Below are positions 6,595-27,900 of a stretch of DNA of 64,000 nt, one piece after another; position 1 is the stretch's first letter, and each line of letters begins with the position of its first letter. The stretch lies in assembly GCA_021732605.1 (NCBI GenBank), contig JAKFUS010000011.1, positions 4,226 through 68,225 on the forward strand, given 5' to 3'. Source of the DNA: Betaproteobacteria bacterium (GTDB lineage: Bacteria; Pseudomonadota; Gammaproteobacteria; Burkholderiales; SG8-41). Both the position numbers and the translations under genes were made by a program. Below the pieces are notes generated by a model. That model saw nothing but the letters and a program-made list of their open reading frames with translations, was not told where the DNA came from and ran no database searches.

Positions 6595-7698
6595 ATGGCG
6601 CTGCGCACGCTGTCGGGCAAACATGCGGATCCGCGCAAGGGGCGCGGTGCGGGGGTTAATCCCGAGGGCCGGTTCGAGCAGGTCGAGCGCGAGGCCTATG
6701 ATGACGGCTGGCAGGACGGTATCGAAGAAGAGCCGGTCGCATTAAAAACCGTGGTCACTGACGAATGCGCGAAATCAATCATCTCGCGCAATGATTCGCC
6801 GGACATTCCATTCACGCAGTCGATCAATCCCTACCAGGGTTGCGAACATGGATGTATCTATTGTTATGCGCGGCCCAGCCATGCCTACCGCAATCTGTCG
6901 CCGGGCATCGATTTCGAGACACGGATTTTTGCCAAGGTGAATGCGGCGGAATTGTTGCGCAAGGAGTTGTCGAAACCGGGTTACCAGTGCGCGCTGATCG
7001 CGCTGGGTGCCAACACCGATCCGTACCAGCCGGCGGAACGCAGCCGCGGCATCACCCGCGGCATCCTCGAAGTCTGCGCCGAATTCAATCAGCCGGTGGG
7101 CATCGTTACCAAGAATGCGCTGGTCGAGCGCGACATTGACATCCTCGCAGCGATGGCAAAAAAGGGACTGGCGGAGGTGTTTGTATCGGTGACCACGCTG
7201 GATCATGAACTGGCGCGGCGGATGGAGCCGCGCTGCACCGCGCCGGCGCGGCGCTTGCAGGCAGTGCGTGCATTGGCGGAGGCGAGCATCCCGGCGGGGG
7301 TGATGGTGGCGCCGATAGTGCCGTTCCTCAACGATCACGAAATCGAGGCCATCGTCGAGGCCGCGGCCGCACATGGCGCGCAACGCGCGGCCTATATCCT
7401 GATGCGCCTGCCGTACGAAGTGAAAACGCTGTTCCGCGACTGGCTGGAGCGGCATTACCCGTTGAAGGCGGCGCATGTGATGAGCCGGGTGCAGGCGATG
7501 CGCGGCGGGCGCGACAACGATCCGGAGTTCGGCAGTCGCATGCGCGGTGCTGGTGAGTTTGCGGATTTGTTAAAACAGCGCTTCAACGTCGCTTGCAAAA
7601 AAGCCGGGCTGAATCAGGCGCGGCGCGGTGAAGGTAGCCAGCGCGACACCACGCAATTCCGGGTACCGGGCGTGGCAAAACAGGGCAGCCTGTTTTGA
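6595..7698 (+). CDS. Radical SAM protein (PA0069-like family)
   Basis: N-terminal KGRGAGVNPEGRFE and a CEHGCIYCY Cx3Cx2C cluster. Confidence 0.75.
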   Translation: MALRTLSGKHADPRKGRGAGVNPEGRFEQVEREAYDDGWQDGIEEEPVALKTVVTDECAKSIISRNDSPDIPFTQSINPYQGCEHGCIYCYARPSHAYRNLSPGIDFETRIFAKVNAAELLRKELSKPGYQCALIALGANTDPYQPAERSRGITRGILEVCAEFNQPVGIVTKNALVERDIDILAAMAKKGLAEVFVSVTTLDHELARRMEPRCTAPARRLQAVRALAEASIPAGVMVAPIVPFLNDHEIEAIVEAAAAHGAQRAAYILMRLPYEVKTLFRDWLERHYPLKAAHVMSRVQAMRGGRDNDPEFGSRMRGAGEFADLLKQRFNVACKKAGLNQARRGEGSQRDTTQFRVPGVAKQGSLF

Positions 7699-7744
7699 AT
7701 CCAGAAAATGTCATTGAACAATCGTATTGTTCGCAATTTTAATC

Positions 7745-7975
7745 AGCTGGTGCCGCGCTTGCTCAAATGCTCGCCCAATGCGCGCATGACATAGGAGGTA
7801 TCCGTCGAGTCGTGCATCAACACGCCGCCGCGCGGATTGGACGCGGCCAACTCGAGATTGATGTTCTAGTTGACTTACTGCGCAAACGGATCTGCTTCTG
7901 CCCGCGGCATACCGATTGACTGAGCGCTGACCCTCGTTCCTTCCTGCCAATCACCTTGCTCTTGAGTTCGGCAAA
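7745..7975 (-). pseudogene. Degraded remnant, possibly of a polysaccharide-deacetylase-like gene
   Basis: Own translation gives only broken frames: DWQEGTRVSAQSIGMPRAEADPFAQ(stop), then NINLELAASNPRGGVLMHDSTDTSYVMRALGEHLSKRGTS(stop). GGVLMHD resembles the C-terminal ILLHD motif of NodB-type deacetylases. Confidence 0.3.
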
Positions 7976-7991
7976 CATTTGGGTTTCAAAA

Positions 7992-8741
7992 CTATTCTGT
8001 TTCCGGGGCTGAACGACGCAGGCTAGCGATCAGGCCGCGGCCATACAATCCACGGGTCAGCAAATGCCTGGCAACCATGAGCGTGATCAGTGCAATATCG
8101 CGGACCGGGCGAAAATGACTGGGACGGCCGGCAAGAGGATAAATTGCTGGAATCGGAACGGGCCGGCCGTGAATGTTGTGCCACCCGGCAAGAATCAATA
8201 TTTCGCTTTCAAGCACAAAGCCTGGTCGTTTTTCGATGAGCGGGAGTAATTTCTCCAACACGACGGCCGGATATACCCGGAAACCGGACTGGCTATCGTT
8301 GATCGGATAACCGGCAGCCCAGGCAATCCAGAAATTGGCAAAGCGATTGGCGAAATACCGTGCCGTTGGAATATTCTTTTTTTCGTGCAACCGGGAGCCG
8401 ATGACAAGAGAGGCCGGGTGTTGTCCCGATTCCGCCAGCAATAAGGGGATATCCCGCGGCCGGTGTTGTCCGTCGCCGTCGAGGGTAACCACCACTTCTG
8501 CGCCTAATGCAAGTGTCTTACGAAATCCGTCCGCAAGGCTGCGCGATTTACCCAGATTTTTTTCATGACGAATCAGGTGTACGGGCAGATCACGAAGTAA
8601 GTCCGCGGTGCCGTCAGTCGAGCCGTCGTCAACCACGACCACCAGCTCGATTTCAGCAAGTACGCCTGAAACAACCGCGCGTAAAGTCTGGGCTTCGTTG
8701 TAGGCGGGGATTACTGCCGCTACCCGGCGTTGACTGTTCAT
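7992..8741 (-). CDS. Family 2 glycosyltransferase
   Basis: VAAVIPAYNEAQTL...VVVDDGSTDGT...TLDGDGQH motifs. The internal ATG gives a 4-nt overlap with the upstream fabG-like gene. Confidence 0.75.
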   Translation of the reverse strand: MNSQRRVAAVIPAYNEAQTLRAVVSGVLAEIELVVVVDDGSTDGTADLLRDLPVHLIRHEKNLGKSRSLADGFRKTLALGAEVVVTLDGDGQHRPRDIPLLLAESGQHPASLVIGSRLHEKKNIPTARYFANRFANFWIAWAAGYPINDSQSGFRVYPAVVLEKLLPLIEKRPGFVLESEILILAGWHNIHGRPVPIPAIYPLAGRPSHFRPVRDIALITLMVARHLLTRGLYGRGLIASLRRSAPETE

Positions 8742-9463
8742 GCCATGCCGCCGTTGATGCCGATAATCTGTCCGGTGATGTAGGAGGCTTGCTTTGAGGC
8801 CAGGAAAACGACGAGCTCGGCAACGTCTTCCGGCTCGCCCATGCGTTTTGCTGGCACCATCTGCCCAATACTCTCCGGTGAAAACAGTTTTTCGGTTTGA
8901 ACGCTGCGAATGATTCCAGGGGCAATGCAATTGACAGTGATGCCGCGGCTGGCGACTTCAAGCGCCAACGAACGGCTTGCTGCATGAATGCCGGCCTTGG
9001 CCGCTGCATAGTTCGCCTGCCCGCGATTACCGATCACGCCTGACACCGAGGTAATACTGATAATCCGGCCCCAGCGGGTGCTCATCATCGGCATCAACAA
9101 GGGTTGTGTGACGTTGTAGAAACCGTTCAGGCAGGCATCAACCACGCGCCGCCACTGGCCCTGGGACATCCCGGCCATCGGTGCATCATCAAACAATCCT
9201 GCGTTATTGATCAATACCTGTATGGGGCCGGTTTCGAGAATTTCTCCGAGGCTGTGCCGGGTTGCGGGGGCATCGCCGACATCAAAACCACACAGCGCGA
9301 CATCAATCCCGTCGCCACGCAGTTCATCGGCCAAATGTTCGGTTTTTTCCCGGTGGGTGTGATAGTGCAGAATCAGATCCATGTCGCAAGTTGCCAGCTT
9401 GCGTGCAATTGCGTGGCCGATGGTGCCGCTGGCGCCGGTCACCAGTGCGCGGATCCGGCTCAT
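8738..9463 (-). CDS. 3-oxoacyl-ACP reductase (SDR, FabG-like), the cluster ketoreductase
   Basis: TGASGTIG Rossmann motif, a NNAG motif and a YAAAKAG catalytic motif. Confidence 0.8.
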   Translation of the reverse strand: MSRIRALVTGASGTIGHAIARKLATCDMDLILHYHTHREKTEHLADELRGDGIDVALCGFDVGDAPATRHSLGEILETGPIQVLINNAGLFDDAPMAGMSQGQWRRVVDACLNGFYNVTQPLLMPMMSTRWGRIISITSVSGVIGNRGQANYAAAKAGIHAASRSLALEVASRGITVNCIAPGIIRSVQTEKLFSPESIGQMVPAKRMGEPEDVAELVVFLASKQASYITGQIIGINGGMA

Positions 9464-9921
9464 TGTGCCCCCGGGACAAACGCCACTGCTGCCCGTCCCT
9501 GAGCAATCTTGACATCCTGATGTTGCAAGCTGAACGAATACAGCATGCCGTCCTGTTCGGCAGAGATCTCTTCAGCTTCAATCCGCAATGTTCCAGAACA
9601 TTCGTCCAGTGTATTGACCAGTAGCGCAAGGCCGCGGACTGATACCAGATAGCCATGCCTGCGGGAGCGGACCGTGCCTGCTGCATCGGCTTTCAGTGCG
9701 GCATGCACGGCAAAACACTGGGCGGCGAGCTCGACTGCGCAGACCGCCGGCAATCTGCCGTCGATCCGATAGGGGTTCCGTGCGAGCAGATGCGCCCGGC
9801 TTTCGCAGACGATGCGCTGCAAATCCCAGCAGCTTACGGTGTCGAGCAGGCAACTCTCTCCCTGATGCGGCACACGGGCCAGGATGGCTTCGCGATCAAG
9901 TATCTTTTGCGATTCAGGCAT
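9460..9921 (-). CDS. Hotdog-fold 3-hydroxyacyl-ACP dehydratase (APE-cluster type)
   Basis: 153 aa. ILARVPHQGESCLLDTV is typical of the dedicated dehydratases in these clusters. Overlaps both neighbours. Confidence 0.6.
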   Translation of the reverse strand: MPESQKILDREAILARVPHQGESCLLDTVSCWDLQRIVCESRAHLLARNPYRIDGRLPAVCAVELAAQCFAVHAALKADAAGTVRSRRHGYLVSVRGLALLVNTLDECSGTLRIEAEEISAEQDGMLYSFSLQHQDVKIAQGRAAVAFVPGAQ

Positions 9922-10696
9922 TCAGTGGCTCCAGCACGACCGAAAGTCCATCCAGATATGGCAACACGACACGCCGTGGCGTTTCCCGGGCTGACAGCCA
10001 GATCATACCCGGCGCGCAGGAATGGCCGTCGAAGTGCGTGGACAGGGCGGGCGGCAGACTTTCGCCCGGTTCATCGCTCAAGCCTAATTGCCAGCATGGC
10101 CCGGAACAACCAGGCGCAAGATAAAACGCGATGGCCAACGATTGTCGCACCAGCACTTGCTCCGCCAGCGGAAACGGATGGGGTGCATCATATGTCACCA
10201 GCAATACTGGAGTGTCGTTTTCTTTCATGGTCAGCACGGCTTCAACCAGGCCGGCGCTCAGGCCGTTAGGGCCGGCTCCCAGGCTGGTCGTCGCAGTTGG
10301 TCTGTGCAGACCTATGCTCCAGTAAGCTGCGGCGGCGTTGTGCACGGAATTGGTAAAACGTGTTGGCGAAACATCCGGGATCGTGGCCGCCAGCGCAGCG
10401 CATATCGCATGGGTGGTCGCACCATCGCCGCTGTTGGTGACAAACACGGCCTGCATGTCTGTCGGTGGAGTCGGGCAGGCTTCTTCCGCTGCAGCAAGAA
10501 CCAGGCAGGTCAGGTCGCTGGCTCGGCGCCGTTCTGCGGCATTCAATAACTTGCTGACGGCCCGCGGCAGCGTAGCCGGGCTGTAAAGCGCCGGATCGAC
10601 CAGCATTTCACACAATGCCTGACCATCAGCCATACCTGCGCCGGCTGCGCCGACGGCAAGCAGACTGAACGGTTGCGTGACTATTGTGCAGGGCAT
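9914..10696 (-). CDS. Ketosynthase-like protein with no obvious active-site motif (chain-length-factor-like partner)
   Basis: KS N-terminal-like sequence, but no CTSS-type active-site motif was recognised. Sits directly downstream of, and overlapping, the KS. Confidence 0.55.
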   Translation of the reverse strand: MPCTIVTQPFSLLAVGAAGAGMADGQALCEMLVDPALYSPATLPRAVSKLLNAAERRRASDLTCLVLAAAEEACPTPPTDMQAVFVTNSGDGATTHAICAALAATIPDVSPTRFTNSVHNAAAAYWSIGLHRPTATTSLGAGPNGLSAGLVEAVLTMKENDTPVLLVTYDAPHPFPLAEQVLVRQSLAIAFYLAPGCSGPCWQLGLSDEPGESLPPALSTHFDGHSCAPGMIWLSARETPRRVVLPYLDGLSVVLEPLNA

Positions 10697-11869
10697 CCGA
10701 ATATCAGAGAGCAATTGCTACCACCGAAACCAAAGGAATTGCTGAGCACATGGCGCAGTGGTTTGCTGCGATTTGTATCTATAAAATCGCAGCTGAATAA
10801 GGGATCAAATTCCCTGCTGTTGAGATTGGCCGGCAGCAGAGCCTGCTGTAGGCAAATCATGCTGATCACCGCCTCGGTAATGCCGGCGGCACCGAGAGTA
10901 TGCCCGGTCCAGCCCTTGGTCGAGCTGCAGGGAGTATTGTTGCCGAACAGGTTAAACACCGCGATTTCTTCTGCTCGATCATTATTAAGCGTGGCCGTTC
11001 CGTGCATGTTGATGTAGTCAATATCCCCGGGTTTCAGTGCGGCACGGGTCAATGCCTGACGCATGGCCGCCAGCGCGCCTGCGCCATCAGGCGCAGGTGT
11101 CGAGATGTGGTAGCCGTCACTGCTTTCCCCCCCAACCCAGCAGCGCCGGTCCCGTAAGGTTGCTGCGACTCAGTAGAGCAAATCCGGCCGCTTCCCCTAT
11201 CGATATGCCTTTGCGTCCAGCGGCAAAGGGCTGGCAGGGCGCGTCCGAGAGCAGTTCCAGTGAATTGAAGCCGTACATGGTCGTCAGACACAGGCTGTCC
11301 ACGCCGCCGACGATGACAGCATCGCAAAGATTTGACGTCAGCATGCGGGTTGCTGCTGCAAAAACCTTGGCACTGGAGGTGCAAGCCGTGGAGATTGTCC
11401 ATGCCGGACCACCGAGCCCGAGATAACTGCGGACAAAATCGCTGACGGCAAACAGGCTGTGGCGGTAACGAAAGTTCACCTCGGGTGGCAAACCGGCATC
11501 CGGACTGCTGCGGGCGCGAAACCCCAATTCTGTTTCCAGAACAGCCGATGTGCTGGAACCGATCAGACAACCGATCCGTTCTGCGCCATAACGTTGACGT
11601 GCATCTGCAACGTGACGTAAAAATTCATCCTGTTCGAGGCCGAGGCGGGCCAGACGATGGTTGCGGCAATCGTATTTTGCCCAGGCCTCAGGGAGGGCCT
11701 CTTGTTCCAAGGCATTCACGCGCCCGATCCAAGTATTCAGGCCGCGGGCTGGCGCAAAATCATTGGCACGCAGACCGCTGACCTGTTTGCGCAATGATTC
11801 GCCGATGGTTTGGGTGCCAACCCCGGCTGCGCTGGTCAACGTATATGCGTCAATGGCAATAGGTTGCAA
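10681..11869 (-). pseudogene. Beta-ketoacyl-ACP synthase (FabB/F-like) split by a +1 frameshift in a C7 (G7 on the coding strand) homopolymer
   Basis: The N-terminal ORF 11117..11869 carries the active-site TACTSS and ends LLGWGGKQ(stop). The C-terminal ORF 10681..11064 carries INMHGTAT and FGFGGSN. Removing one G at 11127-11133 gives LLGWGESSDGYHISTPAPDGAGALAAMRQAL. Confidence 0.8.
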
Positions 11870-11896
11870 AGTCAGTAAGCCGTTGAAAATAAAAAA

Positions 11897-11924
11897 ATTC
11901 TAGCATGGGAGTGCCCCGTTGGAA
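11897..11924 (-). promoter_or_regulatory. Candidate promoter for the KS-CLF-DH-KR-GT sub-operon (TTCCAA, 16-nt spacer, TAGAAT)
   Basis: Read on the minus strand just upstream of the TTG start at 11869. It lies in junction DNA next to the TctC fragment. Confidence 0.25.
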
Positions 11925-12187
11925 TTGATCAACATTGGCGCGGCGACAGTGCCGCCGGCGCGGTTGTCCACCACCTGCTGCCCCCAGTGCTCGGCTATTT
12001 TCAGCGCGACGGTGCGCGCCATGATGTCGGTACCGCTGCCTGCGGAGAAAGGAACGACCATGCGCAGCGGCTTGGCCGGGAAATTCAGCGCGAGGGCGGG
12101 CAAGCCTGAAAGGCAAAGGCTTGTGATGAGCGAGGCCTTGCAAAATATGATGTACATCGCGGTTTTGTTGTTCATGATGCCCCCCAA
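11900..12187 (-). pseudogene. N-terminal fragment of a Bug/TctC-family periplasmic receptor gene
   Basis: Signal peptide followed by FPAKPLRMVVPFSAGSGTDIMARTVALKIAEHWGQQVVDNRAGG matches the first ~80 aa of TctC-type proteins. It then diverges and stops at 95 aa, where full-length members are about 320 aa. Confidence 0.65.
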
Positions 12188-12348
12188 GATTTAGTTGCAT
12201 TTTGATTGAGTAAAAGATTTCGACCTCAGTAACTTTTTTGTGAGACGAGTAGCCCGTAAGTTGCTTGCCCTGAAGGTAGTCCTCTGGGTGGGATTACGGG
12301 TAACATGGCTCCGCATTTCACTTCGCTCCATGCGGGCTACGCTTGCTG

Positions 12349-12876
12349 TTATTGGCGAAAAATAGTGGAGGCGTAATCGGCCAGTGGTTTGGGGAGTAAA
12401 TGCTCAGGACGATCGCCCCCTAAGGTTGCCCAACCGCTTTTCCCTCCAATGACTGCGCTATCGATAATCTCACCTGTATCTATGCGTATCAAAGAAACTT
12501 TAATAGAAGCTACGTCAGGTTTTCCTGACCACTCTGTCGCTCGATCTTCCCAGTGCAAAATCTGTGAATATAGGAGATAAGTAAATTTCCCATCTTTTGC
12601 TGACTGTTGCGCTGCTTCTAAGGTTTCAGTTTTTACCGCTACGATGATCTTGTTCAGATAGGGAGCAAAAGCGGCGGCGATGGCCTGTGCTGTTAGGGCG
12701 CCTGAGCTTGAGTAAATGGTCTGACCATAGCGACCATCTGTGGGAACGGCGACATATGCTGACGCATCTTTGGACAAGCTGAACGTTGAGCCGGGGGCGC
12801 GCATCAGTTGATGGGTATCGGCGCATCCAAGTAAAAGAAAAGTTGTAAAAAAAGCTAAAGCCAGATTTCTTTTCAT
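12349..12876 (-). CDS. Lipoprotein of unknown function
   Basis: Lipobox LLLGC. 175 aa. It occupies the slot directly after the MMPL exporter, where APE-type clusters usually encode a lipoprotein. GC is lower than in its neighbours. Confidence 0.55.
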   Translation of the reverse strand: MKRNLALAFFTTFLLLGCADTHQLMRAPGSTFSLSKDASAYVAVPTDGRYGQTIYSSSGALTAQAIAAAFAPYLNKIIVAVKTETLEAAQQSAKDGKFTYLLYSQILHWEDRATEWSGKPDVASIKVSLIRIDTGEIIDSAVIGGKSGWATLGGDRPEHLLPKPLADYASTIFRQ

Positions 12877-12937
12877 TTGGGAGCGTCCCGTTGGCAGTTG
12901 AAGGTTAGAGTGGGTGGCAGAAATTATTATGCGGCCT

Positions 12938-15298
12938 CTAGCATGCTAGGGGCAATGGCGGCGTCCGGATTTTCGGGGTCAGCCATGCCGAAAATAAAAA
13001 CGAGAATGCTGTGCCACAGAAAGAGGTTATGCCAATGCTGTGCAGGACCGGAGTGCTGGATACGGCAAGTGCGCCAAAGCCGATCAGTGTCGAAACAAGG
13101 CAAATCAGAAGGGAAAACAGCACCCGGTTTTCGCCGACATGATCGGCCGCCGCCCTGTTGAAAAACAAAGCGTAATTGATGCCGACGCCGAGTACCAGCA
13201 GCAGGGCCACCAGATGGAAAAGATTGAGGCGTTCACTGCACAGGTGCAGGACCGCGACCGTGCACAGCATGCCCAGCAATGAGGGTAGAACCACCCGCAA
13301 GGTTGCTCCGATGCGGCGCAAATGCGCGAACAGCAATACCATGATGAGGAGCATGCCTATTCCGGAATACAGCAGTATCTGCTGCCGATAGCTGACAACC
13401 AGCCCCCCGATTTCCTGCTTGAGATCAATCAACAAGGCGGGTGCCAGCCTGTTTGCGCGCTCGGATAAGGCTTTGCTGTCGGTCACGCCCTTAAGCGTTA
13501 TCAATGCCACAGTACTATTGGTTTGGGTAAACAGCAGGCTTTCCACGCGCAACCGCCAGGCCTTGTCGGGAATATCACGGATGCTTATCGGTGACAGCAG
13601 CCGGGCCTGGGCGATTTCCACAAGGAGCGGCGCCAAGGCATCGGGACGGAACCCGGCGGCCTGCGCTGCACCGGGTAGATCCTGTCGCAGCTGATCGGGG
13701 TCAGGCAGTGCCGCAAGTCTTGCCTGTTGTGTTGCATGGCTGGGCAGATAGTCCGCAGCCATGGTGTACCCGGTCAGCAACTTTTCCCGCACCAAAGTAT
13801 CGAGCGCAGGCCGCAAGGCTTCGCTGCCGCGCAGGGCCTGTTCCAGATCCGGCGCAGGGACGGCAATCACGAAACGCACATCGGGTGCCCCCAGCTCCCC
13901 GCGTAATCGCTGATCGCGCATTTTCATTTCGGCGGGCAAGGGATTGAGTGACCCGAGGTCGTCTTCCCAGGAAAATCCGCCAACTGCAAGAATCAGCAGC
14001 GCAAGCAGGGCCGCGACACCGGTCAGCCAGAGCCGTGGCTGCAGCATCTTTCCCAGCCATCTTGGCGGCACCCATGACGCCGAGGCAGTGTGACGCTGGC
14101 GTGGAGCCAGCGCCGGAACGACCCAGCGATTGACCAGCCCGGCAACAGCAATACCGATCACCGCAAGCAATCCGAGTTGTGCCAGCCCTGCAATTCCGGA
14201 AAAAAGCATGGCAAGGTTGCCGACCAGGGTCGTCAGTACCGCCAGCCGCAAAGTGGGCCAGATATCACGGGCGGCTACCGCAAGCGGAAGCCCCGGACTG
14301 GTCTGCAGCAGCAGGTAACTCGGATAATCAATCGTTTCAGCAAGCAGGATGATGGCAAAGGCCAGGGTGATGCCGTGCATCGTGCCGTAGTACCAGGAGA
14401 CCAGCACCACGGCAGCCAGAATGCCGCTGACGGCCGGTATGAAGACCAGGATCATCTGCGCCAAATTGCGATAAACCCAGGCCAGCAGAGCAACGATCAG
14501 CCCTGCGGCAACGATCGTGAAAATCAGGCTCTCATGCTCAATCAGGTTGCGGCTCTCGACTGCGTAGATCGCCGGTCCAGCCAGGATCATGCGCATTTCC
14601 GGCGAAGCTACCGTCGCAAAAACCTGTTCAATTTCATGTTTAACGGCGCTTTGCATTTCGACGGTTGGTGCGGCTTCGCGTATCTCGAGCAGCAGCAATG
14701 CCCTGGCGCCGCTGCCATCGAACCACACGCCATTGCGCATAGCAGGGCCCTGCTGTAAGTCCATGCCCTCAAGGATCCCTGCCAATTCTCCGGTCGGATC
14801 TTGCGCCATCAGCGGTCTGAACAGATCGCCCGACGGCGTACCCAGACGTTCACGTGAAACGTTCAACGCCTGCCGTAAACCTTCGGGCGTGAAACGTTCA
14901 GTGGTTACCGTGGCGCTGAGCAGGTATCGATGGGTAAACAGCCAATTGCGGTCTTGCGTTCGGCGTTCGAATGCACCGTTGGCAATCAGGCCGAACGTAT
15001 GGCTCTCGGCCAGCTTGTCTGCCAGTGCATCGCTGGCTGAGGCCAGAGATCCGGGAGACGCATTTTCCAGCGATACCATGATCGTGCGCGCAGCCGGCCC
15101 ATGCTGCAATTGCCCGATCAGCAGGTCTTGCCGCGGAGTCGCTGCCCTGGGCAAAAAAGCACTCATGTCCGTGGCCACCCTGGTATGGGTGAGCAACATG
15201 TAAAAAGCGACTCCAAGAAATCCCAGCCAGACCGCTATTGCGATCCAATGCTGTTTGCGGCTTAGGGTAGAACCTGCGGAGGAGGGCGGCATGTCCAA
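12938..15298 (-). CDS. MMPL/RND-like exporter (predicted lipid exporter)
   Basis: 786 aa with two blocks of about 6 TM helices separated by large soluble loops. Typical of the exporter in APE-type clusters. Confidence 0.75.
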   Translation of the reverse strand: MDMPPSSAGSTLSRKQHWIAIAVWLGFLGVAFYMLLTHTRVATDMSAFLPRAATPRQDLLIGQLQHGPAARTIMVSLENASPGSLASASDALADKLAESHTFGLIANGAFERRTQDRNWLFTHRYLLSATVTTERFTPEGLRQALNVSRERLGTPSGDLFRPLMAQDPTGELAGILEGMDLQQGPAMRNGVWFDGSGARALLLLEIREAAPTVEMQSAVKHEIEQVFATVASPEMRMILAGPAIYAVESRNLIEHESLIFTIVAAGLIVALLAWVYRNLAQMILVFIPAVSGILAAVVLVSWYYGTMHGITLAFAIILLAETIDYPSYLLLQTSPGLPLAVAARDIWPTLRLAVLTTLVGNLAMLFSGIAGLAQLGLLAVIGIAVAGLVNRWVVPALAPRQRHTASASWVPPRWLGKMLQPRLWLTGVAALLALLILAVGGFSWEDDLGSLNPLPAEMKMRDQRLRGELGAPDVRFVIAVPAPDLEQALRGSEALRPALDTLVREKLLTGYTMAADYLPSHATQQARLAALPDPDQLRQDLPGAAQAAGFRPDALAPLLVEIAQARLLSPISIRDIPDKAWRLRVESLLFTQTNSTVALITLKGVTDSKALSERANRLAPALLIDLKQEIGGLVVSYRQQILLYSGIGMLLIMVLLFAHLRRIGATLRVVLPSLLGMLCTVAVLHLCSERLNLFHLVALLLVLGVGINYALFFNRAAADHVGENRVLFSLLICLVSTLIGFGALAVSSTPVLHSIGITSFCGTAFSFLFSAWLTPKIRTPPLPLAC

Positions 15299-15307
15299 AG
15301 CGGACAG

Positions 15308-15907
15308 TTAATGCCTGACGGCGTCAATCGTCATGGTCGTCCGGTCGTCGGATGCTTCCAGGATATCGACCTGCCGAAGTTCATCCTGCACACCGGAGAT
15401 ACGGATCAGCCGGATGCGGGAAACTAGATCCGGAGTGACTGGCAACATCTCAAGGCTCCACTTGGCACGTGTGCCGGCAAGCCGCAGCTGATAGTGGCGT
15501 CGCAACGATTCTTCATCACCGGCGAGGGTGGCCCGTATGCTTTCAATCAATGCACCGAGCGCAGGTTGATCCCTGATCTGGAACTGGCGTTGCCGGCCAT
15601 TGGATTCTATGGCGATTTTCCCGTTTTCATAGGTAAAGCGCTCCTGCCTGGGTGCCATCGTCATGCGTTCGACATAACCCGGCCGGCGGTAGCGCAATGT
15701 ACCGCTGCTGACCAGGGGCTCCGTGAGCAGTGCGAGGATTTTTTTTTCGCTAAACGCCGATTCGCGGGTTTCAACCTGCGCCAGGATTTGCATCAGCTGG
15801 GGAATTTCAAAGGCAGCTGTTTGCGCCGCGGCAGGTAAGGCAACACTGCTGATCATCAGCCACAGCCAGACGAAGCAGCGGTAGTCAGTTGCGGGTAGCG
15901 GCTGCAT
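15308..15907 (-). CDS. LolA-like outer-membrane lipoprotein carrier protein
   Basis: Signal peptide plus a body about 180 aa long. SGTLRYRRPGYVERMT resembles the LolA fold family. Position is conserved next to the MMPL exporter. Confidence 0.55.
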   Translation of the reverse strand: MQPLPATDYRCFVWLWLMISSVALPAAAQTAAFEIPQLMQILAQVETRESAFSEKKILALLTEPLVSSGTLRYRRPGYVERMTMAPRQERFTYENGKIAIESNGRQRQFQIRDQPALGALIESIRATLAGDEESLRRHYQLRLAGTRAKWSLEMLPVTPDLVSRIRLIRISGVQDELRQVDILEASDDRTTMTIDAVRH

Positions 15908-16790
15908 CGTGCCAGAAGTCAAAAAAATTGTACCAGTTGTAGGGTGCGCGCCGGCACTGCACTTCCAGTCGCGCTGCGTATCGGGACAGCAGGGATTTTA
16001 CTATGGTGTCCCGGGGGCAGCCGGCAAACTCATGGACACCGGACAGGGTCTCAAAGCGCACCACATAACGTCCGTGGTCCACGTACAGACCCGAGAACAT
16101 CACTACCGGTTTTCCGGTGATGGCTGCCAGCAGCATCGGCCCCGTAGGAAACAGGGCTGGTGCTCCGAAGAACGGCATTGCAACGCTTTTTTCCTGGCGG
16201 TAAGCCCGGTCACCCAGCATGGCGACCAACGCACCTTCCTCTAGCGCCTTGTGTGCCTGCAGAAAGGTGTCCGGCCGACCCAGGGGGATCAGCGACTCAC
16301 GCCATTCAGGGTTACGATCATAGAGCACGGACAGCATGGCTGGCGATTGCTCAATTTGCATGAGGATTTTTAACGGAGCTCCAAGATCCAGACCGCAACT
16401 TCGCACGGCGTCACTGTTGCCGAGGTGGGAGCCGATCAGTAGACATCCCTCGCCAGAACCAACAATCGCCTGCAGTGCATCCGCGCCTTCGATTTCAACG
16501 TGCAGGTTCCGGGTCTCGCCGGCTGCAAAATAAAGCCGATCCAGCAGACATACTGCAAAAGTGCGGAAATGCCGCCAGACCTCCATCCGCGATGGTTGCC
16601 GCTCCAACACTTTAGCCAAAAAAACAGCTGAACTACGCCTCGCCTCAGGCGCAAACAAGTAGAAATACAAACTGATAGGCCACATCAGCCAAATGGTGAG
16701 GGATCGCCCCGCAAATAGCCCGATCGCGCTGATCATTCGCAGTGCCATTATCCCCCCACGCTGGCGCTGCCCGTGCCAACTAGATTTCAT
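15885..16790 (-). CDS. LpxL/HtrB-like lysophospholipid/lipid A acyltransferase
   Basis: N-terminal TM helix, a GSHLGNSD (HX4D-type) motif, and a C-terminal YNWYNFFDFW tail. ATGA overlap with the upstream dehydratase. Confidence 0.65.
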   Translation of the reverse strand: MKSSWHGQRQRGGIMALRMISAIGLFAGRSLTIWLMWPISLYFYLFAPEARRSSAVFLAKVLERQPSRMEVWRHFRTFAVCLLDRLYFAAGETRNLHVEIEGADALQAIVGSGEGCLLIGSHLGNSDAVRSCGLDLGAPLKILMQIEQSPAMLSVLYDRNPEWRESLIPLGRPDTFLQAHKALEEGALVAMLGDRAYRQEKSVAMPFFGAPALFPTGPMLLAAITGKPVVMFSGLYVDHGRYVVRFETLSGVHEFAGCPRDTIVKSLLSRYAARLEVQCRRAPYNWYNFFDFWHDAAATRN

Positions 16791-17095
16791 GGACTGACAG
16801 CCCTCCACTCGAAAGTGCCGCTGGCGACTAACTCACTGTCTGTTTGTACGCGGAACGAGGCTTGCGTGCCGGAGTCACTTTCAATCGTAATTCTGCAGGT
16901 CTGACCTGGTTTTAATGGGTGGAAGAATTTGACGCGAGGCCAGCTGTGAGTAATCACCGGGGTCTGTGCAAAATCGGCAGCCAACTGCTCGCACCAAGCC
17001 ATCAGAATTACGCCAGGCACGATCGGATCATCCGGGAAGTGACCAAGTAATACCGGATGGCTGTCTGGCATTATAAATTCACGAGTGACAATCAT
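16787..17095 (-). CDS. FabZ-like hotdog dehydratase (small)
   Basis: HPVLLGHFPDDPIVPGVILM matches the FabA/FabZ active-site region. 102 aa. Confidence 0.65.
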   Translation of the reverse strand: MIVTREFIMPDSHPVLLGHFPDDPIVPGVILMAWCEQLAADFAQTPVITHSWPRVKFFHPLKPGQTCRITIESDSGTQASFRVQTDSELVASGTFEWRAVSP

Positions 17096-18432
17096 GACTT
17101 CAGCCGCCGGTCAATCAGGTCGAGTAGTGCCTCACGTGGTAGCTTACCGTTGTTGTTGCGGGGTAATTGATTCACCAACAGCACCGGTCGCGGTAAAAAA
17201 ACTGGATCAAAGTGTTGAGCAAGCGCATATCGGATGTCGTTTGCATCCAGATCCGCATCTGCAACCACAAGTGCAACTAGCCGACCGCCTTCTTCCGGTT
17301 GCACCAGTACGGCTTCGCGGATTCCCGGCAGGCTGCAGAGCACGGCATTCATCTCCGGAAGCATGGCTCGTTTTCCGCCAATTTTTATTATGTCATTCCT
17401 CCGCCCGATCAATTCAAAGCGGTTCACGCCATCCAATCGCAAACGGTCATGTAAATTTTGTTGCGGCATGCCAGAGCGACCAAAGACTGCCGTGTGATCT
17501 CCGGAAACAGACAGGCTGAGATCATCAGCTAGTTGCCAGATCGAGTTAAGTGCGGTACGACGCAAACCGACCATGCCAATTTCTGTGCTGCCGTAGATTT
17601 CCCATACGGGAGCGTCCCAGAGTTTCTCTAGGGCAACGGCAGTCGTTTTGGGTAGTGGCATGGTCGAGGAAATAATCCCCGCAGGCTTAGATTCAATGCT
17701 ATCGATTTTTGTTTCAACATAGGAGGCGGCATGCAGCGGTGTCACCATCAACCATGTAGGAGGTTGGGAGCGATTTATCGCATTCAGCATGTCCGCAGGT
17801 AGCAACGGTCTTTCCGGATGAATGATACTGCCCCACTGCAAAGGCAGCATCACGGTTGTTTCTAAGCCGAACATGTGCTGTGGTGCAACTGCTCCTAATA
17901 CAGTGCCGGTATGCGGCATTTCCCAGCCAAGCATGTTGCCAAGAGTCAGTGCTCCGCTTACTAGGCTGCCCCAATGCTTAACCAACGGCTCAGGTTTGCC
18001 GGTGGATCCAGAAGTGTAAAGAATGGCTGCAATCTGATCGGCAGCGATGTCCGGTAACCCGACGTTTGCTGGGATTGCAGTTGCACTGTATCCAACGCGC
18101 GTGCATATCAGCCCTTCGTACTGATGTTCTGGTGCTTCCTGATCAATCAGGGCATAAATGGTGCTGCTGTCAGTCGCTGCCTGTAGTATGGCTTTTGTTG
18201 TTCGATCGGCAGGAAGAACCGTAATTAGTCCGCGAGTTAGCGCTGCTATCCATCCCATTACGAAAGAGGCGCGGTCCTCACACAGGTTTAATATCGCGCC
18301 GCTGTTCGGCAGAAGGTGGGATAAAGTTAATGCATGCGCTACAAAAAGTCGGTATGAAACCCAATTGCCATGCCAGCATGTGATCGGCGTTTCAGGCAGG
18401 TAACCCCTTGAAAGCGGTAGAGTTTCAGCCAT
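17092..18432 (-). CDS. AMP-dependent ligase / adenylating enzyme (probable starter-unit loader)
   Basis: LYTSGSTGKPE, EIYGSTE and GRRNDIIKIGGKR core adenylation motifs. Start reset to the ATG that overlaps the upstream stop (TAATG). Confidence 0.75.
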   Translation of the reverse strand: MAETLPLSRGYLPETPITCWHGNWVSYRLFVAHALTLSHLLPNSGAILNLCEDRASFVMGWIAALTRGLITVLPADRTTKAILQAATDSSTIYALIDQEAPEHQYEGLICTRVGYSATAIPANVGLPDIAADQIAAILYTSGSTGKPEPLVKHWGSLVSGALTLGNMLGWEMPHTGTVLGAVAPQHMFGLETTVMLPLQWGSIIHPERPLLPADMLNAINRSQPPTWLMVTPLHAASYVETKIDSIESKPAGIISSTMPLPKTTAVALEKLWDAPVWEIYGSTEIGMVGLRRTALNSIWQLADDLSLSVSGDHTAVFGRSGMPQQNLHDRLRLDGVNRFELIGRRNDIIKIGGKRAMLPEMNAVLCSLPGIREAVLVQPEEGGRLVALVVADADLDANDIRYALAQHFDPVFLPRPVLLVNQLPRNNNGKLPREALLDLIDRRLKS

Positions 18433-18866
18433 TACAAGGGTGGGTATTCCATACACCGGCGGTAAATGTGGAAAAGACCACCATGCTGTCGGATAAGTTG
18501 GAGCAGTGTCCAAGGTGACACGAAAGTGTGTCCCAAAAATCTCCTTTGTCTCCAGGCAAATTCCAGCAGGAAAAACAAGCTAACGGCGATTGAATCCACG
18601 AGTAGAGCGGCGAGTTCCCAACCTTGTGGCCATGTTATGAACAAGTGTTTGATGCCCAAAAGGATTGGAAATATGCCCCAGATCATGGTTAATCTTCGCG
18701 TATACATTGCCAGTTCAGTCGGCAATGTTCCACCTGCTTCTATGGTGGCTATAGCGGTAATCAGGGGAGTCTTGTCTCGGCGCAGAGTGCTAAGAAAGAC
18801 GAAGGATATGCTGGCATTGACGGCCAGCGGCAGCAGTTGAATCCAAGGGCTGGTCAGGCTCACCAT
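18432..18866 (-). CDS. Small integral membrane protein
   Basis: 144 aa with 4 hydrophobic segments. Sits between the ACP and the AMP-ligase. Confidence 0.5.
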   Translation of the reverse strand: MVSLTSPWIQLLPLAVNASISFVFLSTLRRDKTPLITAIATIEAGGTLPTELAMYTRRLTMIWGIFPILLGIKHLFITWPQGWELAALLVDSIAVSLFFLLEFAWRQRRFLGHTFVSPWTLLQLIRQHGGLFHIYRRCMEYPPL

Positions 18867-18930
18867 TTAGCTGCAATTGGTTTTGGGGTTAAAAATTTTT
18901 CAGTATCCTGCTGCAACCTGCCAATCCAGT

Positions 18931-19194
18931 TTATTTCGTTCGATGCTGGGCGATATGATTTGCTAGAGACGTTAGATTGGAAAATATTATTTTATTATTA
19001 TCGCCATCGGAGCGTAACTGAAAACCATAGCGCTTAGAAATAGCGAGAGAAAGTTCAAGAATATCGATTGAATCAAGTCCGATGCCGTCCTCGCCGAACA
19101 ATGACATTTTTGGATCAATCATATTCGCCGACTGTTCCAAATTAAGTATTGAAACTACAAGCTCTGAAAGTTCTGCAACGATATCGTTAGGCAT
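18931..19194 (-). CDS. Acyl carrier protein
   Basis: 87 aa. GLDSIDILEL holds the phosphopantetheine-attachment Ser motif. Confidence 0.8.
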   Translation of the reverse strand: MPNDIVAELSELVVSILNLEQSANMIDPKMSLFGEDGIGLDSIDILELSLAISKRYGFQLRSDGDNNKIIFSNLTSLANHIAQHRTK

Positions 19195-19203
19195 CTTGAT
19201 CTC

Positions 19204-19237
19204 AAAAAATAAAAAACGGAGCTAAATAGCCCCGTTT
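19204..19237 (-). terminator. Rho-independent terminator after the lipoprotein gene
   Basis: Minus strand reads aacggggctatttagctccgtt followed by ttttttatttttt. Confidence 0.6.
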
Positions 19238-19245
19238 AATTAAAA

Positions 19246-19629
19246 TCACATTGTTCGCAGTTGAACGTCGATGGCTTTTTGCAGATTTTGAACCCATCCC
19301 GTGTAATTTTTATGGATGCTTGTCCCAGTGTAGTCCAGATTCACACTGTCCTTGTAAGTGATGCTGTACTGTGTTGCGCTGTAAGGTATGTCCACTACGG
19401 CCTTGTGGGCGCGCAACGATAAGGTGCCAATTAGCGCATCTGGCCCATTGTCCGTGATTTGCCATCCGAGGGTGCTTCCGGCGCGCACTATGGCCGTGCG
19501 AACGTCCGCCTTGGAAATGTTCGCTTTATTGGAAGACACTGCAACGCTATCCACATTGTAGATTGTTGCTGTGCGGCAAGCTCCTAGAAAAATAGCAAGC
19601 AATGCGATCAGACCAAATTTTAATTTCAT
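19246..19629 (-). CDS. Lipoprotein of unknown function
   Basis: Lipobox FLGAC. 127 aa. Low GC. Confidence 0.55.
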   Translation of the reverse strand: MKLKFGLIALLAIFLGACRTATIYNVDSVAVSSNKANISKADVRTAIVRAGSTLGWQITDNGPDALIGTLSLRAHKAVVDIPYSATQYSITYKDSVNLDYTGTSIHKNYTGWVQNLQKAIDVQLRTM

Positions 19630-19830
19630 AAGCCCCCCAAGGTAATTGTTTGAGATTTAACTTATTTTTCTCGTTTATCAAGAAAACAAGGCCGATAGTA
19701 AACGAGGTGCGAACCTAGCAACATTCTTAATGTAAACGGAATAATGTGCAAGAAGAACTTTGGCGTCTCGACGATCCTTCGTAAGCCATATAACAGCCAA
19801 TGCGGTTTGTCTCCTGGATTGCAAAAAGAG

Positions 19831-20592
19831 TTAGTTCGCGCCATCAATTTTATGAGTGATCCAACCATCACTTGGTTTGACTGCCACAAGATTCATCAAT
19901 GTTTCCACTCGATTGCCTTGAGAAGGTATTTTCTTGATACGCAGCTTGCTCAACAAGCCAAGGTCTGTGCGGCTCCACCAAAGGTAAGGAAATGAAATGC
20001 GCCCCGGCTCAACTTGGAATCCAGCATTTCGAATGAGGGTGAGGTACTCATCAGCGCTTTTTTGAGCATCCATCGGGTGGCGAAACAGCAATTTGATAAT
20101 CCATGAATGAATGTATTCGCGCATCGACTCAGCAAACAAAAGCAGGCCGCCGGGCTTAATTACTCGGTAAAATTCCTCGATTGCGAGTTCATGCTCAACC
20201 AAGTGATGGAAAGTCTGGTGGCAAAACAAAATGTCAACGCTATTGTCTGGCAAACCAATGGCAGTGCAGTTCTCTAAACGTAAATCGACCTGAACTCCAT
20301 CACTTTGAGCCTGAATTCGTGATTTTTCGAGCATCTGAGGCATTACGTCAATGCCTATCAAGACTCGTGGGTTAAAGGCATGCTTTAGTAGTCGAAATGA
20401 TTTTCCTTGACCGCAACCAACATCAAGTACCACATCAGCATTGGTTAGACGTGATTTTCCAATTAAGTTAAGCAAATTCTCGACCGCAACTTCAAGCACA
20501 AATTTGACCCAGGTCTCGCTACCAAGAAACCAAATGCCAAATCGCGTTTCAGGAACAAATTCGAACTGGGTTAATTTTTTTTCATTGTCCAT
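19831..20592 (-). CDS. Class I SAM-dependent methyltransferase
   Basis: VLDVGCGQGKS motif I and IKPGGLLLF post-motif. 253 aa. Confidence 0.75.
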   Translation of the reverse strand: MDNEKKLTQFEFVPETRFGIWFLGSETWVKFVLEVAVENLLNLIGKSRLTNADVVLDVGCGQGKSFRLLKHAFNPRVLIGIDVMPQMLEKSRIQAQSDGVQVDLRLENCTAIGLPDNSVDILFCHQTFHHLVEHELAIEEFYRVIKPGGLLLFAESMREYIHSWIIKLLFRHPMDAQKSADEYLTLIRNAGFQVEPGRISFPYLWWSRTDLGLLSKLRIKKIPSQGNRVETLMNLVAVKPSDGWITHKIDGAN

Positions 20593-20597
20593 GGCTA

Positions 20598-20909
20598 TTA
20601 AAGGCGATTAAGGAGTTCCTTCTTCTTCGCCTCAAATTCCTCTTTAGTTCTGATTCCGCGGTCGTGAAGGCCTTTAATTCGCTCCGGGTTTTTTAGTGCG
20701 TCGTCTTTACTATGGCCAGATGTCGCAGGAGATAACGTTGTCGCTAGAAACCCGTGAGCAATTTGAAAGGCTTGTTTTTCGGACATATTATAAAGAATTC
20801 GCTCTTTGGAGCCCTCTGGTTGGAGCGTGGAAAAGTACATCCAGCAACCGGTCAGCAGCGTAGGCAGAATAAACAGCACTGCTAATATGGTCACGTGGCC
20901 TGCCTTCAA
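20598..20909 (-). CDS. Small lipoprotein with a C-terminal SHOCT-like domain
   Basis: Lipobox LLTGC. The C-terminus IKGLHDRGIRTKEEFEAKKKELLNRL resembles the SHOCT short C-terminal domain. Confidence 0.5.
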   Translation of the reverse strand: MKAGHVTILAVLFILPTLLTGCWMYFSTLQPEGSKERILYNMSEKQAFQIAHGFLATTLSPATSGHSKDDALKNPERIKGLHDRGIRTKEEFEAKKKELLNRL

Positions 20910-20923
20910 GAATTAGCTGGGGG

Positions 20924-21175
20924 TTGATGTGGAAGGGGGCGATTCTGTTAAAACTATACCTGCATGAAGCCATTGTGTTGTCGTTGGGCGGAGTATTGGC
21001 CATCATCGGCTACTCTTGCGTCGATGCTTTTGCCAACCTGACGACCGTTGCGGGCTTCGGCCTGCTGGCGTTTTCCAGCGTGCCGATACTGCAGGCAATG
21101 GGCGTGACTGTGGCGCCGGGGGTGGTCCTCGCGCTGATTTATGCGGCAATTTTTGCCAGGCAATCCGATGCCTAG
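20924..21175 (+). pseudogene. C-terminal fragment of a second MMPL-type exporter gene
   Basis: TTVAGFGLLAFSSVPILQAMGVTVAPGVVLALIYAAIF parallels the C-terminus of the intact exporter (STLIGFGALAVSSTPVLHSIGITSFCGTAFSFLF). Only 83 aa remain, and the fragment abuts the low-GC block. Confidence 0.45.
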
Positions 21176-24902: not shown

Positions 24903-27900
24903 ATGGTATTCATGACCACCCGAAAAAAGACCGCCCCTAAAAAAACCGCTGCTAAATCACCCATGGCGAAGCCCGCTGCCATGCCCATCGGGGCACCGGA
25001 GCCGGTTGTGCCGTCCGACGCAGGCTTCCCCATCGTCGGCATTGGCGCCTCGGCGGGTGGCCTTGCCGCTTTCGAAGCGTTTTTTTCTGCAATCCCTAAC
25101 AGCAGTGGCAGTGGCAGTGGCAGTGGCAGTGGCAGTGGCAGTGGCATGGCTTTTGTCATTGTGCAGCATCTCTCCCCTGACCATAAAAGCATACTCACCG
25201 AACTGATCGCCCGTTACACCCGGATGCAGGTGTTCGAAGTCGAAGACGGGATGGTGGTCCGGTCCGATTGCGTCTACATCATCCCGCCCAACCACGACAT
25301 GGCCTTCCTCAACGGCGCATTGCAGTTGCTGGAGCCGACTGCGCCCCGCGGCCAGCGTTTGCCCATCGACTTTTTTTTCCGTTCGCTGGCGCAGGATCGG
25401 CACGCACGGGCGATTGGCATCGTGCTTTCCGGCACCGGCAGCGACGGCACCCAGGGCGTACGCGCAATCAAGGGTGAGGGCGGCATGGTGATGGTACAGG
25501 ACTTCGAATCCACCCAATACGACGGCATGCCGCGCAGCGCGGTGGCCACCGGCATGGTGGATTTTGTGCTGCCGCCGGCAGAAATGCCGGCACAACTGAT
25601 CGCCTATGCCCGCCATGCGTTTGGCAAGACCAAAGAAACATTCTCTTCAAACAGCCTCAAGGTTGATGAGGCATTGAAAAAAATCTTTGTGTTGTTACGG
25701 GCGCAGACCGGGCACGACTTTTCCCAATACAAGCAGAACACCATCAATCGCCGCATCGAGCGGCGTATGGCCGTCCATCAGATCGAGCTGGTCGACGACT
25801 ACATCCTTTATCTTCGCAAGACACCGTCCGAGGTGGGGGAATTATTCCGCGATCTGCTGATCGGCGTCACCAATTTCTTCCGCGATCCGGAAGCCTTCAA
25901 GGCGCTGGAGGATGAGGGTATCGTCCGTCTGTTGTCAAACAAGCCCGCGGGCAGCACGGTACGGGTTTGGGTGCCCGGATGCTCCACCGGCGAGGAGGCC
26001 TATTCCATCGCGATTCTGCTGCAGGAACGGATGGACGCGCTGAAGACCAGCCTCAAGTTGACGGTGTTCGCGACCGACATCGACAGCCGCGCCATCGAGC
26101 ATGCCCGTGCCGGCATCTACCCCGCCAGTGTCGCCGCCGATATTTCGACTGAACGGCTGAAACGTTATTTCACCGAAGAACCCGGCGGTGGTTTTTTCCG
26201 TATCAACAAACTGATCCGCGACATGCTGGTTTTTTCCGAGCAGGACGTGATCAAGGACCCGCCATTTTCCCGGCTTGATCTGATCAGTTGCCGCAATCTG
26301 CTGATTTACATGGGGCCGGAGCTGCACAAGAAGCTGCTGCCGCTGTTCCACTATGCGCTGAATCCCGGTGGGATCCTGTTTCTGGGTTCTTCCGAGTCGA
26401 CCGGTGACCATCTCGACCTCTTCGCCACACTTAATCGCACGGCAAAGCTGTATCAGCGCAAGGATGAAGGGGTTCCGCATCGTCTGTCCCTGACCCGCTT
26501 TCTTCCGCCGGTAACGGGCATTGGGCGCAAGCCCGGGAAACCCTTGGCTGAAACCAGTGCGCAGTTGCGCGAACTGACCGAGCGGACTTTGCTGCAGCAA
26601 TATGCAGTGGGGGGCGCACTGGTCAATGATCGCGGCGATATTCTCTACCTGCATGGGCGCACCGGTCAGTATCTGGAGCCGGCGGCGGGTGAGGCCGGAT
26701 TGAACATTCTGAAAATGTCACGTCAGGGATTGCGCCCGGTAATGGCCACGTTATTACACAAAGCCACGACAAAAAAGGAGCTGGTGTCTCATGCGGGTGC
26801 CCGTGTCAAGACCAATGGCGATTTCTCCAGCGTGGATGTCAAAGTCTGGCCGGTCCTTTCGGATATGACCGAGCAGCCGCTGTTTCTCGTTGTGCTCCAA
26901 CCTTCATTGAAAGCCCCTGCAAGCGGGAAAACAGCCGGCGGCGCGACAACGCGTACCGAGAACAAAGCGGACGCCAGAAAAATCAATGTACAGGTGGCGG
27001 CACTGCAGCAGGAATTGCGCGACAAGGAGGAGTATCTCCAGTCCAGCACCGAGGAACTGGAAACCACCAACGAGGAGCTGAAGTCCGCGAACGAGGAAAT
27101 GCAGTCGATCAACGAGGAGATGCAATCCACCAATGAGGAGCTGGAAACCTCAAGGGAAGAACTGCAATCGGTCAATGAGGAGCTGGCCACCGTCAACGCC
27201 GAATTGCAGGGCAAGGTGACTGATCTCTCACAGACCAACAACGACATGAACAATCTGCTCGCCGGCACCGGCGTGGGCACGATTTTCGTCGATCATCAGT
27301 TGTGCATCCAGCGCTTCACCCCCGCCATCACGCTGGTGATCAATCTCATCGCGACCGATATCGGGCGGCCGGTCGGGCACATTGTCTCCAACCTGATGGA
27401 TTACAACCGGCTGGTGGAGGACGTGCAGCGGGTGCTCGATACCTTAGTCCCCAGCGAGATCGAGGTGCAAACCAAGCTGGGCAAGTGGTTTGTGTTGCGC
27501 ATACGCCCTTACCGCACGCTGGAAAATGTGATCGAGGGCGCGGTGATCACCTTTTTCGATATCACCGAAATGAAAAAGGCGCGTGATGAGTTGGAGGAGG
27601 CACAGTCCCTGCGCCGCCTTGCGGCCATCATGACCGATTCGCGCGATGCCATCCTGGTGCAGGATCTGGAGGGAAAAATCCTCGCCTGGAATCCCGGCGC
27701 AACCCGCTTGTATGGCTGGACTGAGGCAGAGGCGCTGGCGATGAACATCCGTCAACTGATTCCGCAGACCGGGCAGGAGGAAGCGCTGGCTTTGATCCGG
27801 CAACTGGCCCGCGCCGAAATTCTGCAGCCCTATCAAATGGATCGGATCACCAAGGATGGCCGGACCGTGCACGTGGCGCTGACTGCCACCGCGCTGGTCG

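Follow-up and report, generated by a model that had tools for sequence, protein, structure and literature searches.

In the window (the whole stretch of 64,000 nt that was analysed), an aryl-polyene (APE)-like cluster occupies positions 7992–20592, with all of its genes on the minus strand. The gene for its ketosynthase (KS) is split between two reading frames at a run of seven Gs, and the genes and features around this run are as follows.

7992–8741, minus: GT2 glycosyltransferase in an ApeJ-like position, overlapping the ketoreductase gene by 4 nt
8738–9463, minus: ketoreductase (KR) of the SDR type, ApeQ-like, overlapping the dehydratase gene by 4 nt
9460–9921, minus: ApeP-like dehydratase (DH), overlapping the chain-length-factor gene by 8 nt; the Pfam match of the window protein is weak (E 0.0089)
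9914–10714, minus: half-size, ApeC-like chain-length-factor (CLF) partner (PF13723 at 4.9e-30; PDB chains 7F28_A and 6QSP_B)
10681–11130, minus: remaining, C-terminal portion of the KS, lying in the next frame (aa 247–395 of the repaired protein), with His289 and His323; the mechanical ORF from ATG 11064 has 127 aa
11117–11869, minus: N-terminal fragment of the KS, 250 aa, TTG start, holding the active-site Cys163 and ending ...GWGGKQ at TGA 11119–11117
11127–11133, minus: G7 tract (C7 on the plus strand) in the codons TGG (11134–11132) GGG GGA, one G above the TGG GGG GAA (Trp-Gly-Glu) of the closest intact orthologues
11899–12945, minus: 1038-nt insertion between the MMPL and KS genes, with the 9-nt direct repeat CATGCTAGA at 12945–12937 and 11907–11899
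11900–12175: within the insertion, a 91-aa ORF, an N-terminal fragment of a periplasmic binding protein of the TctC/Bug type (PDB 5OEI, E 1e-8 in a PDB sequence search)
12349–12876: within the insertion, a DUF4823 gene
12938–20592, minus: upstream part of the cluster, all ORFs intact, made up of the nine genes below
12938–15298, minus: MMPL exporter
15308–15922, minus: LolA-like protein
15885–16808, minus: lipid A-type acyltransferase
16787–17095, minus: ApeI-like DH
17092–18513, minus: AMP-ligase
18432–18866, minus: membrane protein
18931–19194, minus: acyl carrier protein (ACP; PRK09184)
19246–19629, minus: lipoprotein
19831–20592, minus: methyltransferase

The interrupted ketosynthase and its cluster

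The CCCCCCC at 11127–11133 on the plus strand is GGGGGGG on the coding (minus) strand, where the sequence reads CTG CTG GGT TGG GGG GGA AAG CAG TGA. Translation terminates three codons past the run, at the premature TGA (11119–11117). The first-pass annotation had placed a +1 base in this run, and the reading of the coding strand confirms it. With G7 the KS is out of frame and with G6 it is in frame. Removal of one G fuses ORF 11117–11869 with ORF 10681–11064 into a protein that reads ...LLGWGESSDGYHISTPAPDGAGALAAMRQAL... and has exactly 395 aa, where about 395 had been predicted, and the conserved KS motif that was said to be restored is indeed back in this repaired protein. In a tblastn search with the repaired protein, aa 1–247 aligned in frame -1 (11869–11129) and aa 247–395 in frame -2 (11130–10684). 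The G7 run also creates a possible G-quadruplex motif. An Rfam scan of the window returned one tRNA only, with no match near the G7 site.

The repaired KS matched NCBIfam NF006618 (PRK09185) with 500.3 bits against a cut-off of 407, over positions 3–391 of 394, and contained both KS Pfam domains. It has the Cys-His-His catalytic residues of elongating ketosynthases in TAC163TS, H289GTAT and GH323TLGA, with Cys163 upstream of the frameshift and His289 and His323 downstream. Its best PDB matches were the ApeO chains 6QSP_A and 7F28_B, which come from the Xenorhabdus and Acinetobacter ApeO–ApeC complexes, where the ApeO–ApeC heterodimer makes the fully elongated polyene (PMC8358021). Judged by these matches, the interrupted gene is an ApeO-type ketosynthase. 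About 8000 KS homologues are on record and nearly all of the best 120 are 390–400 aa long. A separate observation is a 584-aa homologue (P0010; ENA, 2472-nt contig) that is approximately 190 aa longer than all others and may be a fusion or a read-through product.

The core APE set in the window is complete, with ACP, AMP-ligase, ApeI and ApeP dehydratases, KR, LolA-like and MMPL export proteins, acyltransferase and glycosyltransferase, and the relatives have the same gene order. The ApeP-like match of the DH is recorded for the identical gene call on a contig in the Logan assemblies. The CLF gene overlaps the KS gene by 34 nt if TTG 10714 is its start; the NCBI annotation has a shorter CLF. 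A tblastn search with the repaired protein found no second KS in the 64-kb window. ApeR, the second, FabB-like KS, is accordingly absent from the 64 kb, and one ACP ORF only was found, in place of tandem ACPs. The APE clusters of E. coli, Xenorhabdus and Acinetobacter have ApeR and tandem ACPs, and the window cluster differs from them in having neither. Because some APE clusters, such as that for xanthomonadin, have a single ACP (PMC8253772), these absences point to a reduced variant of the aryl-polyene type (one KS, one CLF, one ACP) rather than to exclusion, so that the window cluster would still fall within the APE class, its product being a prediction only. The ApeO-type KS is the sole condensing enzyme of this APE-like type II PKS/lipid cluster, which belongs to a population of uncultured proteobacteria, probably of the beta group. 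The KS family, the ApeC-like CLF and the accessory genes resemble those of the characterised ApeO–ApeC systems (Xenorhabdus doucetiae, 6QSP; Acinetobacter baumannii, 7F28; the E. coli CFT073 cluster). Unlike in those systems, the KS in the window is interrupted and a 1-kb foreign insertion lies between the MMPL and KS genes.

The G tract in related populations

Comparison with orthologues, as suggested in the first-pass annotation, spoke for the extra G on the one hand and against its idea of a length switch on the other. The closest intact relatives, L101 (94% aa identity; SRR12053441) and L102 (ERZ27280265), read TGG GGG GAA, which is G6, and G6 is also found in L002, L003 and L012, which belong to one more distant MAG lineage. 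In all remaining orthologues the Gly codon is GGA, GGC or GGT and the run is G4 or shorter. The state in the window is best read as G6 plus one G, the extra base falling in the codons for Trp-Gly-Glu within the conserved motif GWGESSDGYH. The tract itself appears to result from the synonymous codons that a few lineages happen to use, and not from selection to keep a contingency tract. G5, G6, G8 and G9 versions of the window haplotype were looked for and none was present in the protein collection; the Logan assemblies agree on G7.

Comparison of the window with L101 along the cluster gave one further feature.

9966–11133: recombination tract relative to the related population L101

Between 11126 and 9966 the window and L101 differ at 14 of 1161 nt (98.8% identity), and the first 332 nt from the run (11132–10801) are 100% identical. 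As a comparison, identity to L101 is 87.0% in the flank at 11907–11134 and 84.2% in the flank at 9965–8038. The dS between the two is 0.527 upstream of the run and 0.019 downstream. Differences from L101 occur every few bases up to 11135, which is the third position of a Gly codon and lies 2 nt before the run. With differences this dense upstream, the breakpoint has to be no more than about 20 nt from 11135, in an interval that includes the run. The G7 run is the exact 5' end of this 1.16-kb stretch of 98.8–100% identity, which appears to have been exchanged with a related population. The other edge of the tract, at about 9966, is seamless.

A second lesion was found at the same tract in L004 (JGI 3300056966, Ga0499959_0084278, protein P0012), where a 68-nt out-of-frame deletion in the KS begins inside the same G run.

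L004 840–870, window-equivalent 11131–11061: the L004 deletion, with its joint between TTGG and GCGTC at 1–3 nt of G

L004 is 94.6% identical to the intact L102 over 427 nt up to the run and 83.7% identical directly after the deletion. In total, two lesions and two switches of relatedness coincide with one G tract. Two observations here go beyond the first-pass annotation, namely that the run is a recombination-tract boundary and that a related population has a second lesion in the same run.

The whole cluster is a patchwork of segments related to different populations, and breakpoints are therefore common in it. By our rough estimate, the probability that chance alone places a breakpoint at the run is 1–3% in the window, and about 0.3% when the two cases are taken together, which is unlikely but possible. 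Elsewhere in the cluster, identity between the window and L101 was approximately 95% at 14900–16300 and 58–76% at 16700–19100, and identity to L102 was 91–99% in the GT2/KR region (8100–9100). The 5' part of the cluster is poor in G+C (44–52% at 17000–21000, against a window mean of 59%).

We also used these relatives to ask how old the lesion is. The dN/dS of the repaired KS relative to its relatives was 0.07–0.14 (about 0.1), with 15–16 synonymous and 7 non-synonymous branch-specific changes on each of the window and L101 branches, and the other genes of the cluster are all full length. A dN/dS of about 0.1 together with intact neighbouring genes suggests that the KS was under purifying selection until very recently and that its inactivation is recent. 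This lends support to the recent inactivating mutation that the first-pass annotation had offered as one of its options. Between the window and L004, dN/dS was 0.07–0.08, from which the two lesions appear to be independent and recent. We considered an old pseudogene shared with L004 and rejected it on the same values.

Alternative readings of the extra G

Exact copies of the 250-aa and 127-aa KS fragments occur in the public protein collection, from the NCBI record (75,184-nt contig) and from Logan. In Logan, contig SRR10388209_34353 (5303 nt; 2 samples reported) matches window 7038–12340 at 100% identity, G7 included. Logan contigs of the runs SRR10388208 and SRR10388209 cover window 12313–18876 with no homopolymer differences, T9 included. 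One of these two contigs is identical to the window and the other, L103, has two G>T substitutions.

Some details of these contigs are recorded here as observations. The substitutions in L103 (Logan SRR10388209_8396) lie at window-equivalent 15670 and 12538 and distinguish it both from the window and from the other run; one of them turns GAA into TAA in the LolA-like gene. The two changes may represent a low-frequency variant, or else damage of oxidative or sequencing origin. Where two Logan contigs meet to cover the cluster, they share just 28 nt (12313–12340), in intergenic sequence after the DUF4823 gene that contains the inverted repeat CCGCAT...ATGCGG; here a repeat or a structural variant may have made the assembly graph branch.

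As a check for other frameshifts in the window, each long homopolymer was compared with the ORFs; a crude gene map based on GC3 was too noisy for this. Results from this comparison showed that the other long homopolymers (A/T of at least 7, C/G of at least 6), T9 and three T8 included, lie in intact ORFs or between genes in 28 of 28 cases. One gene of 1016 aa contains A7, T7, T8, A7 and G6 and stays intact, and the housekeeping genes secD, tgt, pcnB, purB, coaBC and rsmB are also intact. The C7/G7 occurs once, and no other C/G run of at least 7 is present in the 64 kb. Dinucleotide-preserving shuffles lead to an expectation of 7.9 ± 3.3 such runs, so with one observed they are depleted in the window, and the sole one is the one that breaks a gene. 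The best match to the window among GTDB species representatives is 78% identical. At 24903–30124 (plus strand), the 1016-aa protein is a CheB-CheR-PAS fusion, and the gene after it encodes a hybrid PAS histidine kinase/response regulator of 724 aa; several A7, T7 and T8 runs leave both of them intact.

These data bear on two readings in which no cell carries the lesion as assembled. The first-pass annotation had listed a sequencing or assembly error, with the organism truly G6 and its KS intact, and several facts make such an error worth weighing: homopolymers are error-prone, the source is a metagenome-assembled contig, the two G>T changes in L103 mean that these assemblies are not error-free, and SRR10388208 and SRR10388209 are consecutive accessions, probably from one study. 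However, Logan uses a separate de Bruijn pipeline that works directly on SRA reads, and since the same G7 was obtained there, the assembler is not its source; an assembler artefact is unlikely, as is a systematic read error. The identity of the independent contig over all 5303 nt in 2 samples, the agreement of two runs over the adjacent 6.5 kb, the 28 homopolymers that break no ORF and the failure to find an intact G6 form of the haplotype among 15 billion proteins all disfavour this option, and we regard it as unlikely. A chimeric contig, in which two co-occurring strains were joined at the run so that the mosaic and the frameshift exist in no single cell, is very improbable. Assemblies of mixed-strain metagenomes can switch haplotype in conserved stretches, and the run does adjoin the most conserved KS motif, but chimeric joins in de Bruijn assemblies are seamless and add no base. 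A de Bruijn assembler cannot create k-mers that are missing from the reads, which also counts against an assembly error, and the reads must contain k-mers with the window-specific T at 11135, the G7 and the downstream block. The Logan contig is also unbroken across both block boundaries, as would not be expected if another haplotype were abundant in that sample, and the L101 haplotype has itself been recovered in several assemblies. We rejected a chimeric join because it cannot add a base and because the Logan contig is continuous at the block edges.

Two further readings accept the extra G and let the gene be used at least part of the time. The first-pass annotation had raised slipped-strand phase variation, a reversible on/off switch of the pigment pathway with the sampled population mostly 'off'. 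Short C/G tracts switch genes in Bordetella, Neisseria and Campylobacter, and phase variation typically affects traits such as surface pigments and lipids. The run in the window is a simple-sequence tract inside an ORF whose length sets the frame, slippage can lengthen or shorten G7 by one unit, a return to G6 would give back the intact gene, and two related populations have lesions at the same tract. As at known contingency loci (the poly-G/C tracts of Neisseria, Campylobacter and Haemophilus and the bvgS C tract of Bordetella), a one-base change in a G/C run within an ORF silences the protein and is in principle reversible. Unlike those loci, the window tract is short (seven units do not exceed what is usual for functional G/C contingency tracts), is not conserved, shows a single length throughout the available data and derives from a G6 that synonymous codon choice had created. 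In most orthologues the run is an interrupted G4, G6 being confined to three lineages, no G5, G6, G8 or G9 form of the haplotype is on record, the second lesion is a 68-nt deletion and irreversible, and G/C runs are depleted in this genome, not enriched. The lack of conservation of the tract among orthologues argues that no switch has evolved, and together with the missing length variants it leaves the proposed switch unsupported; we consider it decidedly unlikely. Recoding, by a +1 ribosomal frameshift (tRNA-Gly slipping from one GGG onto another that overlaps it, ahead of the rare GGA) or by transcriptional slippage, could keep the KS functional. A +1 slip on G GGG GGA gives exactly the ancestral WGESSD, GGA is the rarest Gly codon in the window genes (54/541), and low-level +1 re-pairing at this site is conceivable. 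The case resembles +1 frameshifting of the prfB type in that a +1 shift is needed for the full-length protein and GGG-to-GGG re-pairing is formally possible. It differs in that no orthologue has the shift, the intact orthologues all being single-frame, and in that the window site is without the stimulatory layout of prfB (an A-site stop beside the slip codon and a Shine-Dalgarno sequence 3 nt upstream). Unstimulated slippage is normally well below a few percent. Programmed +1 frameshifting was rejected because the shift is not conserved and stimulatory signals are absent, and we think it extremely improbable that recoding of any of these kinds keeps the enzyme functional.

Origin and consequences of the insertion

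The reading that we prefer is that of a genuine, recent and ordinary loss-of-function insertion of one G (G6 to G7) in the ApeO-type KS, which we consider probable. At its core are a real mutation, a dead gene and no evolved switch, and on this core we are reasonably confident. Only its position at the recombination boundary, which it has in common with the independent lesion of L004, sets it apart from other such mutations.

How the G was inserted is a more delicate matter. The position of the insertion at the 5' end of the exchanged segment makes an origin linked to recombination the most likely one. We suggest, with about even confidence, that the G was added by recombination, or in repair tied to it, with an out-of-register joint in the G tract that was formed at microhomology or in a manner like homology-facilitated illegitimate recombination (HFIR). 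The joint would have formed out of register in the G run during recombination between alleles that are about 15% diverged; by an alternative route, repair synthesis would have started at the fragile G tract. The L004 joint would have formed at a microhomology of 1–3 nt. The microhomology present at the joints is the 6–7-nt G run in the window and 1–3 nt of G in L004. The order of events could also have been the reverse, with a pre-existing indel that set the end of the tract, for example via mismatch repair of the heteroduplex.

In HFIR, which is described from transformable bacteria, one end is anchored by homology and the other joins at a microhomology of 3–10 bp (PMC6382021). The present case resembles HFIR in Acinetobacter baylyi, Streptococcus pneumoniae and Pseudomonas stutzeri in that the lesion marks an abrupt change of relatedness, with one tract end passing seamlessly into homologous sequence and the other placed at a short G-rich microhomology with a net change of +1 or -68 nt. 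It differs in that it comes from metagenomic natural populations and not from experiments, and in that diverged alleles of the same gene appear to have been exchanged, with no foreign DNA. More tentatively, and with somewhat less conviction than doubt, we propose that the G tract of the Trp-Gly-Glu codons is a natural hot spot where tracts exchanged between diverged, co-existing populations end in imprecise joints (out of register or at microhomology), creating loss-of-function alleles. On this view the +1 G of the window and the -68 nt of L004 would both be HFIR-like scars in environmental populations, and homopolymer indels would mark where exchanged tracts end.

The stop after G7 would split the Cys163 half of the KS from the half with His289 and His323. 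Because these halves are separated and the sole KS is lost, the pathway should be off. In E. coli, most mutants in core genes of the cluster are unpigmented (PMC8253772). The first-pass annotation had described the genes downstream of the KS as translationally coupled, and start-to-stop overlaps were found all along this part of the cluster (34 nt if TTG 10714 is used, then 8, 4 and 4 nt). Since these genes overlap, polar effects, via lost translational coupling or via Rho-dependent polarity, may lower their expression.

For annotation, the KS is to be recorded as a frameshifted pseudogene in an otherwise complete APE-like cluster, and counts of producers of the cluster's compound should leave this MAG out. 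For genome mining in general, one homopolymer indel can silence a whole cluster that seems intact. If the reads confirm the pattern, homopolymer indels in mosaic genes would be possible footprints of imprecise recombination joints, beyond replication slippage, and the idea that indels mark breakpoints can be tested across metagenomes.

The 1038-nt insertion upstream of the KS is common to the window and L004, and in L101, L102, L093, L001, L002 and L005 the MMPL gene runs directly into the KS gene. This insertion looks like an illegitimate, microhomology-mediated event. The 91-aa ORF in it had no Pfam or NCBIfam match. Outside the cluster, a 386-aa ORF at 37895–39055 (minus strand) combines a fatty-acid desaturase domain (aa 10–212) with a fragment of an ISL3-family transposase (aa 265–385); probably a desaturase was truncated here and joined to what remains of an IS.
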